Under the pieces are notes generated by a model, which searched no databases, was not told the DNA's origin, and worked only from the letters and a program-made list of their open reading frames with translations. A stretch of 25,056 nucleotides of DNA, from contig JAHEDN010000002.1 in the NCBI GenBank assembly GCA_024641225.1, positions 1 to 25,056 on the forward strand. The letters run 5' to 3'. Positions 2,641 to 6,339 of the stretch are shown piece by piece. Position 1 is the first letter of the stretch. Each line of letters starts with the position of its first letter. Source of the stretch: Burkholderiales bacterium. Lineage in GTDB: Bacteria; Pseudomonadota; Gammaproteobacteria; Burkholderiales; Burkholderiaceae_F. The translations under genes and the position numbers were made by a program.

Positions 2641-2707
2641 CGTCGAGCACGGTCCCTCTTATCACGTAGACAGGCCGGCCCGACGCCAGCGCGGGCCCTT
2701 TTGCCCC

Positions 2708-2741
2708 AAAAAGGTGGCGGCTTCGCCGTCAGGCGGCCACC
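2708..2741 (-). terminator. Intrinsic-terminator-like hairpin plus T5 on the minus strand
   Basis: Minus strand reads GGTGGC-(17 nt, partly paired)-GCCACC-TTTTT. No annotated minus-strand gene leads into it. Confidence 0.3.
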
Positions 2742-2792
2742 CTGGCCCGGCCTATTGGTACGCGGGAAACCGGAATCTGATCTGGACAGGCT

Positions 2793-4298
2793 GTGGTGTT
2801 TTCCTTTTTCAAGAAGGATCCGAAGGACGCCAGAAAGGGCGCAGGTGGCCGGACCAAGCCGCCCGCGGGCACGAGCCGCGCGTCCGGGGCGACTGATCTG
2901 GCAACGCGCCCGATGCCAAAACCGATCGGACGCCCTCTCGCCGGGCCAACGACCCGATCGCTGGATCGCTTGACTTCGCCGTCGACGGGCTCGCTGCCTC
3001 CGGACACCAACTTGCCGGAGCGTGAACGCGTGCGCCACAACGCTCGGCGAACAGCAGAAAAGATCGACGCGATCGAGGCCGAAATGGCCCGCGACCTGAT
3101 GGGAAACCCGAGCCCGACCACGGTTGCGCCGGCGACGAGACCCAGGATTTCCATCGTGGGCGAGACGACCGTGGCGCCTTTCCCAACGACCCGGCCGCTC
3201 GAGCCCGCCGAGTCCGTCGAGATCAACTCGGAAATGCTCGGCGGGAACATCGACGCGATAGAAATCAACACGTCCGGCGGCAGTTCCGTCATCGATGAGA
3301 CCGCGATCCTCTTTTCGAATGGCCAGGCCGATGCCGCAGAAAACGTGCTCCGCGCCGGCCTGCGCCGCGACGACCTCGGATCCTCGACGCGCATGGCCTG
3401 GCACATGCTGTTCGAACTCGTCAACCAGCGTGGCGACCGGGACGCTTTCGAAAAATTGACCATGAATTACGCGCTGCGCTTCGAGGATTCGCCGCCGGCC
3501 TGGGTCGAATTCGATGACACAGTCGCACCGCGGACAGTCACCGGCATGGCGCCTCAACCCACAACCAAGGGTTGGCCCGGTGTTCGCCTCCCTGAATCCG
3601 TCGACGCGGGCATTGTCAGCCATCTCGAGCAGTTGCGCGGCCTGACGGCGGCGCACGCAGAGGTGCAACTCGACTTATCCGACGCCAAGCGCATCGACAT
3701 CGCCGGAGCCAGTCTGCTGCTGCGCGTGGTCGGCGCGTTCAGGCGTTCCCATCGCGAACTGACACTGGTTGGTGCGGCGCATTTCGCGGGAGTCCTGTCA
3801 CAGATGGTCGAGTCGGGCCGCCGCGACCCTTCGGATGCGCTGTGGATGCTTCTGCTGGAAGTGCTGCGCATGCTCGACAGGCAGGACGATTTCGAAGAGG
3901 CGGCGATCCAGTACTGCATCACGTTCGAGGTCTCGCCGCCATCGTGGGAGCCTCCTCCGGCCAATCTGAAGGTCGCTCCGGCAAGCAGCGCGCCCGCTGC
4001 CGGTGCCGTAGCGCCAGTGGCAACGCCGATGGAACTGCGCGGCACGGTAGACGGTGAAGGCGAGCCGCACTTCAGCCGGCTGGTCGCCGCAGCGAAGAAT
4101 CAGACGGAGGTCGTGATCGACTGCGCCAGGCTTCGCCGACTGACCTTTTCGGCCGGTTCGGCGCTCGTGGGTACGCTGCGCAAGATCAGGCAGGGTGGTT
4201 CAGCCGTCGAACTGCGCAACGTCAGCGCACTGGTGACTGCGCTGCTGCACCTGCTCGGCATTGCGTCGATCGCCTCGGTGCGATCGCGCTACCTCTGA
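2793..4298 (+). CDS. Uncharacterised protein with two STAS-like domains, each preceded by a repeated helical W..SPPxW module
   Basis: 501-aa ORF with GC3-biased codons (GTG start at 2793 or 2796). STAS-like segments VQLDLSDAKRIDIAGASLL and VVIDCARLRRLTFSAGSAL; 35-aa internal repeat at 3399-3503 and 3843-3947. Confidence 0.8.
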   Translation: MVFSFFKKDPKDARKGAGGRTKPPAGTSRASGATDLATRPMPKPIGRPLAGPTTRSLDRLTSPSTGSLPPDTNLPERERVRHNARRTAEKIDAIEAEMARDLMGNPSPTTVAPATRPRISIVGETTVAPFPTTRPLEPAESVEINSEMLGGNIDAIEINTSGGSSVIDETAILFSNGQADAAENVLRAGLRRDDLGSSTRMAWHMLFELVNQRGDRDAFEKLTMNYALRFEDSPPAWVEFDDTVAPRTVTGMAPQPTTKGWPGVRLPESVDAGIVSHLEQLRGLTAAHAEVQLDLSDAKRIDIAGASLLLRVVGAFRRSHRELTLVGAAHFAGVLSQMVESGRRDPSDALWMLLLEVLRMLDRQDDFEEAAIQYCITFEVSPPSWEPPPANLKVAPASSAPAAGAVAPVATPMELRGTVDGEGEPHFSRLVAAAKNQTEVVIDCARLRRLTFSAGSALVGTLRKIRQGGSAVELRNVSALVTALLHLLGIASIASVRSRYL

Positions 4299-4316
4299 AG
4301 CGGGCAGCCGGCCGCG

Positions 4317-4344
4317 GTTGAATCCCGCGCCGGCGCCCCCAGAT
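4317..4344 (+). promoter_or_regulatory. Putative sigma32 (RpoH) promoter of hslVU
   Basis: GTTGAA (4317-4322), 14-nt spacer, CCCCAGAT (4337-4344), versus consensus CTTGAA-N13/14-CCCCATnT. hslVU is a canonical RpoH target. Confidence 0.75.
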
Positions 4345-4351
4345 CACTGCG

Positions 4352-4888
4352 ATGGAACCGTTCCACGGCACAACGATCGTCAGCGCCCGCCGCGGCGCTC
4401 GCGTGGCAATGGGAGGCGATGGCCAGGTCACGCTAGGCAATGTGGTCGTCAAGCAGACCGCGCGCAAGGTTCGACGCCTGTATCACGACCGCATTCTTGC
4501 CGGTTTCGCGGGCGCCACCGCCGATGCGTTCACCCTCTTCGAGCGCTTCGAGGCGAAACTGGAAAAGCACCAGGGCAACCTGCTGCGCTCTGCGGTAGAA
4601 CTGGCCAAGGACTGGGGGACCGACCGGATCCTGCGTCGCCTGGAGGCGATGCTGGCAGTCGCCGACCGCGAGACCTCGCTCATCATCACCGGCAACGGCG
4701 ACGTGCTCGAGCCCGAGCTCGGCTTGATCTCCATCGGCTCCGGTGGCCCCTACGCTCAGGCCGCCGCGCGCGCGCTACTCGACAACACCGAACTGGCGCC
4801 TGTCGACATCGTCAAGAAATCACTCACCATCGCCGGTGACCTGTGCATCTACACCAACCAGTCGCATACCATCGAATCGATCGACTGA
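4352..4888 (+). CDS. hslV: ATP-dependent protease subunit HslV (ClpQ)
   Basis: GTTIVS N-terminal Thr nucleophile, [38 protein letters not shown]. Confidence 0.98.
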
Positions 4889-4923
4889 CGGCATGCCGCC
4901 GGCTTTTTCGTGGCTTTTGTCGT

Positions 4924-4958
4924 GCGCGCGCCCGCCCGGCCGCCCGAAGGGCGCGCGC
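4924..4958. other. 10-bp inverted repeat in the hslV-hslU spacer
   Basis: GCGCGCGCCC (4924-4933) / GGGCGCGCGC (4949-4958), 15-nt loop. Confidence 0.65.
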
Positions 4959-4968
4959 CTAACCTGAC

Positions 4969-5017
4969 CGCTTCGCGTGCACGTGCGACCGCGCAGCGGT
5001 CGCGTACACGCGAAGCG
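4969..5017. other. Long two-tier stem-loop ending 8 nt before the hslU start
   Basis: Outer stem CGCTTCGCGTG (4969-4979) / CACGCGAAGCG (5007-5017), 11 bp. Inner stem GCGACCGC (4985-4992) / GCGGTCGC (4996-5003), 8 bp with a 3-nt loop. Confidence 0.75.
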
Positions 5018-5025
5018 AAGCACCC

Positions 5026-6339
5026 ATGATGACCCCCCGTGAAATCGTCCACGAACTGAACAAGAACATCATCGGCCAGGACCGCGCCAAGCGCGCAGTG
5101 GCCATCGCGCTGCGCAATCGCTGGCGCCGGCAGCACGTCGACGAGCCGCTGCGCGGCGAGATCACGCCGAAGAACATCCTGATGATCGGGCCGACCGGCG
5201 TGGGCAAGACCGAAATCGCCCGCCGGCTGGCAAAACTGGCCGATGCGCCGTTCATCAAGGTCGAAGCCACCAAGTTCACCGAAGTCGGTTACGTGGGCCG
5301 CGATGTCGACTCGATCATCCGCGATCTGGTCGATATCGCCGTCAAGCAGACGCGCGAGGCAGAGATGAAGAAGATGCGCGCCCGCGCCGAAGATGCCGCC
5401 GAAGACCGCATCCTCGACGTGCTGGTGCCTCTGCCCCTCGGCGAGACCCGCCGTGACGACGAGGGTGCGGCGCGGCAGAAGTTCCGCAAAAAGTTGCGCG
5501 AAGGCCAGCTCGACGACACCGAGATCGAGATCGACCTTGCGCAACCGGCGCCGACGATGGAGGTGATGGCGCCGCCGGGAATGGAGGAACTGACGCAGCA
5601 GATCCAGTCGATGTTCGCCAACCTCGGCCAGAGCCGGCGCCGCAGCCGCAAGCTGCGCGTGCGCGATGCCTTCAAGCTGCTGGTCGACGAGGAAGCGGCG
5701 AAGCTCGTCAACGAGGAAGAACTGAAGTCACGTGCCCTCAGTAGCGTCGAGCAGAACGGCATCGTCTTCCTCGACGAGATCGACAAGATCGCAGCCCGCT
5801 CCGAGGTCGCCGGCGCCGACGTGTCTCGACAGGGCGTGCAGCGCGACCTGTTGCCGCTGGTCGAAGGCACCGCGGTCAATACGAAGTTCGGCATGATCAA
5901 GACAGACCACATCCTGTTCATCGCCTCGGGCGCCTTTCACTACGCCAAGCCATCGGACCTGATCCCGGAACTGCAGGGACGATTCCCGATCCGGGTCGAA
6001 CTCGACTCGCTTTCGGCGAAGGACTTCGAGCGCATCCTGACCGGGACCGATGCCTGCCTGACGCGGCAGTACGAGGCGCTGCTGGCGACCGACGAGGTAG
6101 CGCTGAGCTTCACGCCGGACGGCATCACCCGGCTGGCGGAGATCGCCTATTCGGTCAACGAAAGGACCGAGAACATCGGCGCCCGCCGCCTGTACACGGC
6201 GATGGAACGGCTGCTGGAGGAGATCTCCTTCGACGCCGGCAGCGGCCAGCGGCGCGAGCTGCGCGTCGACGCCGCCTACGTCGACGAACGCCTGGCCGAC
6301 CTGTCGCGCAACGAGGATCTGGCCCGCTACGTGCTCTGA
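5026..6339 (+). CDS. hslU: ATP-dependent protease ATPase subunit HslU (ClpY)
   Basis: MTPREIV, Walker A GPTGVGKT, pore loop GYVG, Walker [29 protein letters not shown]-terminal DLARYVL. Confidence 0.98.

Follow-up and report, generated by a model that had tools for sequence, protein, structure and literature searches.

In AAA+ adaptors such as SspB and ClpS, a long flexible linker joins a folded cargo domain to a short terminal peptide that docks on the protease or engages its pore, and LapB is a TPR adaptor for FtsH. To our knowledge, no dedicated adaptor of HslUV has been described. Here, we have analyzed a gene that lies directly upstream of hslV and hslU in a 25,056-nucleotide (nt) stretch of DNA from a Burkholderiales bacterium (contig JAHEDN010000002.1; this whole stretch is called the window below). 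The gene encodes a protein with two TPR hairpins, each followed by a STAS domain, and is referred to as the TPR-STAS gene. The contig belongs to a metagenome-assembled genome (MAG) that is 77% complete and distributed over 463 contigs, and the sequencing runs with near-identical DNA were sediment and soil metagenomes.

Several described systems resemble this locus in part. The layout of terminal peptide, linker and binding domain in ClpS and SspB is similar to that of the TPR-STAS protein, which should be considered an analogy and not homology, and the clpS-clpA arrangement likewise places a gene directly upstream of protease genes. However, the TPR-STAS protein is unrelated to ClpS and SspB in both sequence and fold, and its binding to HslU is putative. 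SpoIIAA/RsbV proteins (PDB 6m36, 1th8/1tid and 1h4x) share its fold but consist of a single STAS domain, whereas the TPR-STAS protein has two, with a TPR hairpin before each of them and a 160-amino-acid (aa) N-terminal tail. MlaB is a STAS protein that acts by binding and not by phosphorylation, as we suppose for the TPR-STAS protein, although the latter is five times larger. Finally, FimV/HubP has a cytoplasmic TPR segment in common with our protein, which nevertheless lacks a signal, the FimV_N Ig domain, LysM/FimV_core, the transmembrane helix and the FimV C-terminal motif (Pfam and NCBIfam searches); it is soluble, with its TPRs fused to STAS domains.

The TPR-STAS family and its place before hslVU

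When 1.84 billion cluster representatives were searched by profile, 1,699 clusters matched at E<=1e-3, of which 705 also matched at E<=1e-30. The gene was present in 161 of 401 genomes in an even sample of GTDB Burkholderiales (that is, betaproteobacteria), with an uneven occurrence in different families (8-10 of 10 genomes in some, 0 of 10 in others), and no full-length relative could be identified by a core-profile search in ~400 other genomes of the class. Named members included those of Collimonas fungivorans Ter331 (AEK63866.1), Massilia forsythiae, Lautropia mirabilis, Chitinimonas koreensis, Ferribacterium limneticum, Sulfurimicrobium lacus, Hydrogenophaga, Acidovorax and Roseateles, and were annotated only as 'STAS domain-containing' or hypothetical proteins. 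Matches to shorter forms came from incomplete family members on short contigs and gave no case of a single-module relative. It should be noted that one GenBank record from Lautropia mirabilis (VEG99596.1; cluster of L089:4995-6332, minus strand) is named 'ATP-dependent protease HslVU (ClpYQ), peptidase subunit', which is an annotation error that probably arises from adjacency to hslV.

The gene neighbourhood was examined in 79 loci from species-representative genomes and in 20 hand-picked distant members of different families. In 87 of 91 evaluable loci, the next genes downstream were hslV-hslU in the same orientation, and the gap between alignment ends had a median of 62 nt; because the surveyed loci are kin, this proportion should not be taken as a statistic. 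In the exceptions, hslV was either 1.8 kb away (one locus) or absent from the locus (three loci). Even among the distant members (26-35% identity), hslVU was found downstream in 19 of 20, with other neighbours differing. The linked loci span Burkholderiaceae-like MAGs, Oxalobacteraceae (Collimonas, Massilia), Comamonadaceae (Hydrogenophaga, Acidovorax, Roseateles), Rhodocyclaceae, Lautropia and Sulfurimicrobium. As the upstream neighbours vary, the gene appears to travel with hslVU. An earlier reading of the window, made from its letters alone (the sequence-only reading), had placed the protein in a dksA/hslVU linkage. The hslVU half of this proposal holds down to 26% identity, whereas only 28 of 77 loci had dksA in the 1.2 kb before the gene.

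By full-text search, we found no paper joining a STAS domain with hslV, or with hslU and dksA; a looser search showed no STAS-HslUV link among the best matches listed, and no paper was found to cite any of six member accession numbers. Structure searches revealed no solved structure with a TPR-STAS-TPR-STAS architecture. Whole-protein Foldseek against PDB returned noise save for single STAS domains, and shape and feature searches of the ESM Atlas returned unnamed STAS clusters only. The view that the protein is uncharacterised was thereby borne out, in that nothing could be assigned beyond its STAS and TPR domains and the structure searches gave no characterised family. The family is real, widespread and uncharacterised; its domain arrangement is new, and its striking linkage to hslVU had not been reported before.

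The open reading frame (ORF) at 2793-4298 on the plus strand comprises 501 codons with no internal stop. Homologues with 100% coverage open with M/V-V-F-S-F-F-K-K, which identifies GTG 2793 as the true start. The public gene call on the contig (P0004) is a 404-aa protein beginning at Met98, which misses nt 2793-3083; as the N-terminal motif and the first linker are absent from it, automated calls of this family are often N-terminally truncated. Two AlphaFold2 models were used, one of the full length (predicted local distance difference test, pLDDT, 70) and one of the core, aa 160-501, with 75 sequences (pLDDT 91, predicted template modelling score 0.57). The features of the gene and its neighbours, all on the plus strand, are as follows:

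2793..4298 (+): full ORF of the tandem [TPR hairpin + STAS] protein, 501 aa, GTG start, stop at 4296-4298
2793..2828 (+), aa 1-12: N-terminal aromatic-basic motif MVFSFFKKDPKD, from conservation in 75 homologues
2829..3017 (+), aa 13-75: disordered linker 1, basic and Pro-rich; pLDDT <50, variable in length and sequence among homologues
3018..3101 (+), aa 76-103: conserved helix with the motif K-I-D-A-I-E-A-E-M-A-R-D; AlphaFold2 helix, pLDDT ~80
3102..3278 (+), aa 104-162: disordered linker 2, with a second IDAIE at its end (aa 153-157, nt 3249-3263); pLDDT <50
3282..3503 (+), aa 164-237: two TPR units of four helices, the second being hairpin 1, W203...SPPAW237; from AlphaFold2, structural matches and hhalign
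3579..3806 (+), aa 263-338: STAS domain 1, phospho-acceptor position Ile303; Pfam, AlphaFold2 beta-alpha fold
3828..3947 (+), aa 346-385: TPR hairpin 2, W351...SPPSW385, with near-invariant Cys375; repeat alignment, AlphaFold2
4029..4286 (+), aa 413-498: STAS domain 2, phospho-acceptor position Phe452, with near-invariant Cys444; Pfam STAS_2 at 413-490
4299..4351 (+): spacer of 53 nt between the gene and hslV; no terminator-like site, sigma32-like motif
4352..4888 (+): hslV, proteasome-like peptidase; Pfam Proteasome, E 6.4e-21
5026..6339 (+): hslU, AAA+ unfoldase; Pfam AAA_2/AAA
1707..2474 (+): dksA, upstream neighbour; Pfam DksA_N and zf-dskA_traR

Further away, the locus is flanked upstream by a COG0523/CobW GTPase gene and downstream by argB, a HAD hydrolase gene and sppA. 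The TPR-STAS protein itself is non-catalytic and consists of two TPR-STAS binding modules behind a terminal peptide and a flexible ~160-aa linker, which contains two IDAIE-type motifs.

The duplicated modules and their relatives

The sequence-only reading had described a duplicated W..SPPxW plus STAS module. Residues 203-237 and 351-385 indeed aligned without gaps at exactly 13 of 35 identities and an offset of 148 aa (two-sequence BLASTP, aa 160-345 versus aa 346-501, E 2e-8). When profiles of module 1 (aa 160-345) and module 2 (aa 346-501) were cut from a 26-sequence family alignment and compared by hhalign, 135 columns were matched with a probability of 97.6% and E 2.6e-12. As this alignment spans hairpin, linker and STAS domain, the whole module was duplicated and not only the motif. 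The hairpins are TPR units. AlphaFold2 placed helices at 164-175, 179-192, 196-213 and 216-230 with pLDDT >90, and residues 160-242 matched the TPRs of BamD, Rap, MamA and LapB (Z 8.8-10.1), values that are common for helical repeats and support the assignment at the level of fold only. A TPR_14 match in Pfam at aa 172-193 remained below threshold (16.9 versus 23.5 bits), and hairpin 2 aligned with consensus-designed TPRs.

The TPR/FimV-like helix that had been noticed before the first repeat was recovered not only as a weak TPR_14 match and in the structural comparisons (Z 9-10) but also by hhalign to a FimV-like protein. In the core-profile search of genomes of the class, FimV_N-containing proteins of 700-740 aa were matched in their cytoplasmic part (E 1e-9 to 1e-12), and the double TPR unit (aa 169-267) aligned with the cytoplasmic segment of a FimV_N protein over 89 columns (hhalign 96.6%, E 6.9e-10). 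Both the family and the FimV_N proteins have the hairpin pattern W..LF.L....GDR..FE......F..S.P.W, and the genome's own FimV fragment gave a weak match to the TPR unit (E 0.003). On these alignments, the FimV likeness is real homology, confined to the cytoplasmic TPR segment.

This homology brings in the main alternative explanation of the protein, namely, that it is a soluble hub or scaffold of the FimV/HubP type for polar or envelope-associated partners, with the N-terminal peptide possibly at the membrane and the position before hslVU being merely an inherited order. The common TPR pair and the match to the genome's own FimV speak for such a hub; however, the features that define FimV (FimV_N, LysM, the transmembrane helix and the C-terminal motif) are all missing. 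Taking these points together with those from gene order and from the tail given below, we consider this explanation unlikely on balance, although with a real chance of being correct.

In addition, a hairpin W..LFDL..GDR..F....F...P.W, followed by an unannotated C-terminal segment (..LL.DD.G.R.GF....EI.FL..LL), was shared by three of the 700-740-aa FimV_N proteins (L123:3124-5349, minus strand; L124:3234-5378, minus strand; L125:1887-3989, plus strand) and two single-transmembrane proteins of ~300 aa from other Gammaproteobacteria (L126:3141-4040 and L127:2996-3877, both plus strand). Judged by these shared patterns, hairpin and C-terminal segment together look like an undescribed cytoplasmic module of FimV-like proteins.

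Each hairpin had also been said to be followed by a STAS-like domain. Pfam detected STAS_2 (PF13466; E 4.8e-16, 59.1 bits against a cut-off of 29.2) and STAS (PF01740; E 8.3e-10, 38.8 bits against 22.6), both in two stretches, and the models contain two beta-alpha STAS folds at approximately aa 263-338 and 413-498, with the folded parts at pLDDT >90. STAS2 could be superposed on RsbV (6m36_B) over 91 residues (Z 10.7, 2.1 A), and further structure matches included the STAS domain of SLC26A11 (Z 11.0), RsbS (Z 9.9) and SpoIIAA (Z ~10). According to profiles and predicted folds, the protein belongs to the STAS superfamily. The lack of a phospho-acceptor, which had likewise been proposed, was confirmed by alignments to RsbV and to Pseudomonas aeruginosa MlaB and by the hhalign of the modules. 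The position of RsbV Ser56 is occupied by Ile303 in STAS1 and by Phe452 in STAS2; position 303 is L/P/A/I/V/T among homologues, and Phe452 is kept in 72 of 75, usually as D-F. As far as sequence comparison can show it, neither STAS domain is phosphorylatable at the canonical site. The sequence-only reading was also right that no anti-sigma kinase is nearby: the genome's PF13581 kinase matches are all on other contigs, with none inside the window.

A protein with such domains may act as a phosphorylation-independent STAS antagonist in a circuit that resembles partner switching. One or both STAS domains would bind and withhold a target, which may be an anti-sigma factor, a kinase or (compare MlaB-MlaF) an ABC-type ATPase, and a stress signal would thereby be passed to transcription or transport. 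The two bona fide STAS folds, with RsbV, SpoIIAA, RsbS and SLC26 STAS as their nearest structures, are consistent with this role, as are sub-threshold matches to TIGR00377 and mlaB_1, the presence of two small RsbW-like kinases elsewhere in the genome and the position of the gene among stress genes (dksA, hslVU). However, the acceptor position is Ile/Leu/Pro in STAS1 and an invariant Phe in STAS2, and the profile scores are far under their cut-offs: 24.4 bits versus the NCBIfam cut-off of 53.45 for TIGR00377 (anti-anti-sigma), and 27.4 versus 90 bits for mlaB_1 (NF033618), which matched only as a 41-residue fragment at 289-329. Moreover, no anti-sigma kinase, PP2C phosphatase, sigma factor or mla gene was linked in ~100 related loci. 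Since nothing of that kind is ever linked, a partner-switch or MlaB-like role becomes less likely, and we regard an antagonist of this type as quite improbable.

Two specific STAS identities were rejected. That of a SpoIIAA/RsbV antagonist was dismissed on the missing acceptor Ser/Thr, the missing linked kinase and the sub-threshold TIGR00377 score, and that of MlaB on its score and on the absence of an adjacent mlaFEDC, the neighbours being dksA/cobW and hslVU. It should be noted that the auto-annotation of the Joint Genome Institute labels many family members 'MlaB component'.

Module 2 is further distinguished by two cysteines, Cys375 in hairpin 2 (window 3915-3917; 68 of 75 homologues) and Cys444 in a STAS2 strand (window 4122-4124; 70 of 75), whose equivalent positions in module 1 have no Cys. 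Their conservation, and the frequent presence of a COG0523 metallochaperone-type gene (cobW) as a neighbour, would fit a redox or metal switch in which the two residues form a disulfide or a metal site that alters binding by module 2. Such a switch would be compatible with any hypothesis about the partner. We nevertheless hold it to be very unlikely, as two Cys are too few for a classical Zn site and buried structural cysteines are often conserved too.

Gene order, transcription and the N-terminal tail

The order cobW-dksA-X-hslV-hslU (X being the TPR-STAS gene) recurs among the loci. In genomes without the gene, including a small-genome genus of the window's own family, dksA or cobW adjoins hslV. 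For example, dksA lies ~370 nt upstream of hslV in L113 (G079:C53:10139-13666; the window's family, genomes of 2.0-2.6 Mb), and cobW lies 24 nt upstream in L112 (G013:C3:628512-632039). This points to cobW-dksA-X-hslVU as the ancestral block, from which X was repeatedly lost. Such an arrangement is what simple deletion predicts and in this respect agrees with an inherited order, as the FimV-type hub would have it; on the other hand, adjacency to hslV persists where all other neighbours have changed, and drift alone is a poor explanation for this throughout the order. The sequence-only reading had also offered a scaffold or adaptor, with DksA or RNA polymerase among its possible partners. The domains of the protein are those of a scaffold or adaptor that binds other proteins and has no enzymatic activity, so that this part of the proposal stands, whereas a role with DksA or RNA polymerase has little backing because the dksA linkage is partial and dksA/cobW adjoin hslV when the gene is absent.

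Two side observations were made on neighbouring and related genes. First, the dksA ORF of the window has 255 aa and its DksA_N domain begins at residue 141, which leaves a long N-terminal extension; tblastn matches to the product start at about residue 105-124 in most related loci, so the extension is not widely conserved. Second, a 355-aa paralogue with the duplicated TPR-STAS core and no N-terminal tail or motif was found in Rhodocyclaceae (L067:5896-6963, plus strand, and the closely similar L073). No hslV is nearby, and in L067 the paralogue begins 15 nt after a gene for a methyl-accepting chemotaxis protein (4250-5881).

A scan of the window locus revealed no terminator-like site between the gene and hslV. 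The spacer contains a sigma32-like GTTGAA-N14-CCCCAGAT at 4317-4344, a motif found mostly in close kin (13 of 90 loci with a loose pattern). A sigma32 consensus scan gave 6 of 102 upstream of hslV; in 34 regions preceding the TPR-STAS gene, no site resembling the consensus was seen. Contigs from four metatranscriptome runs (three studies) overlie the gene and cover the N-terminal extension and most of the spacer between dksA and the gene; RNA contig 2689-3225 covers the 5' part of the gene, and another contig, 1067 nt long and 95.5% identical, comes from a soil RNA library and bridges 3341-4407, reaching from the 3' part of the gene across the spacer into the beginning of hslV. The latter contig gives a weak hint of read-through from the gene into hslV, as RNA contigs cannot prove a single transcript, its ends or its strand, RNA libraries can hold DNA, and uncovered parts are uninformative. 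The spacer between dksA and the gene (2475-2792, 318 nt) is almost fully covered by RNA contigs (2400-2643, 2523-2691, 2656-2822 and 2689-3225), which could represent a long 5' leader or read-through from dksA. Simple scans detected no promoter-like or terminator-like site in this spacer, and Rfam gave no match across the window, this spacer included.

The N-terminus had been described as probably disordered. This is correct for aa 1-74 and 104-162, where AlphaFold2 gave pLDDT <50, but the region is not featureless, and its conserved motifs had been missed. The 'disordered' N-terminus carries the most conserved short motifs of the family. Among 75 homologues, F3, S4 and F6 of the extreme N-terminal motif M-x-F-S-F-F-K-K are near-invariant, as are I91, D92, I94, E95 and M98 of K-I-D-x-I-E-x-x-M, which lies in a predicted helix. 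Variants of the terminal motif in different families (MAFSLFGKK, MGIFSLFGK, MVFSFFKKK) are always at the very N-terminus. In Comamonadaceae it is swapped for an amphipathic GLLSKxxxFVRxPT segment followed by KRRNDFVRKREFDMLRK, and the helix motif is retained as KKIDEIEAQM. The second IDAIE (aa 153-157) has conserved D154, A155, I156 and E157; both copies (aa 91-95 and 153-157) are conserved in the family and detectable as a DNA direct repeat (3060-3093 / 3246-3279). No other protein of the genome was found by search to have the N-terminal motif, which is unique to ORF 2793-4298. With regard to a hub that might contact the membrane, the N-terminus of Comamonadaceae members is amphipathic (z 1.7-3.5 versus shuffled controls) and fits a biophysical role such as membrane contact, whereas the common FSFFKK form is no more amphipathic than shuffled controls (hydrophobic moment, mean z ~0).

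Possible coupling to HslVU

As the best of the explanations considered, we tentatively propose that the TPR-STAS protein may be a non-enzymatic accessory factor coupled to HslVU, either an adaptor or tether that brings clients to HslU or a regulator that is itself degraded by HslVU; we consider this reading possible, although at somewhat less than even chances. The aromatic-basic N-terminal peptide with its linker would engage HslU, at the pore or the I-domain, and the TPR-STAS modules would hold one or more client proteins. In this way, the activity or specificity of HslVU might be directed, or the level of the factor might be set by HslVU.

The first support is the gene order, which strongly backs a link to hslVU: almost invariably, the gene heads an X-hslV-hslU array in which the spacer is short and lacks a terminator. 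The RNA contig that bridges into hslV adds a weak hint of read-through. Second, the only domains of the protein are the protein-binding TPR and STAS domains, with no catalytic domain. Third, by analogy, the layout matches that of known AAA+ adaptors, in which a short docking peptide at one end is tethered through a long flexible linker to a folded cargo domain. Finally, the N-terminal V-F-S-F-F is aromatic-rich and would lie beside a long unstructured region from which degradation might be initiated. An aromatic residue of the SulA degron contacts pore Tyr91 of HslU (ClpY) (PMC10743992).

Several observations weigh against coupling to HslVU. The gene is absent from 240 of the 401 sampled genomes of the order, most of which keep hslVU; HslVU thus does without it in most of the order and does not need the TPR-STAS protein. 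No alignment column of HslU or HslV separated 85-97 sequences from genomes with the gene from 8 sequences from genomes without it, a comparison of low power, and this lack of co-variation would also be expected of a FimV-type hub. The gene or its paralogue was located away from hslV in three loci, once right behind a chemoreceptor gene. The sigma32-like promoter within the spacer of close kin implies that hslVU may be transcribed alone. In our searches, no fused or longer forms were found (fusion to HslU, HslV or another domain). Conserved synteny alone is no proof of function, as an order can persist without it; in enterobacteria, for instance, ftsN lies ahead of hslVU although no functional link between them is known.

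The stronger claim, that the family provides the first dedicated HslVU accessory factor, that is, an operon-encoded adaptor or anti-adaptor which docks on HslU by its aromatic-basic N-terminal peptide and presents clients held by its FimV-type TPR and non-phosphorylatable STAS modules, is doubtful at present. The family puts two common parts to a new use, a STAS domain minus its phospho-switch and a TPR hairpin otherwise found in the cytoplasmic part of FimV/HubP, and it has members in cultivable and genetically tractable bacteria (Collimonas, Massilia, Acidovorax and Hydrogenophaga). As HslVU is the least understood bacterial AAA+ protease with respect to substrate choice, the family offers a concrete, testable entry point. 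If the claim is true, betaproteobacterial HslVU would have a layer of substrate selection that is unknown in the Escherichia coli model.

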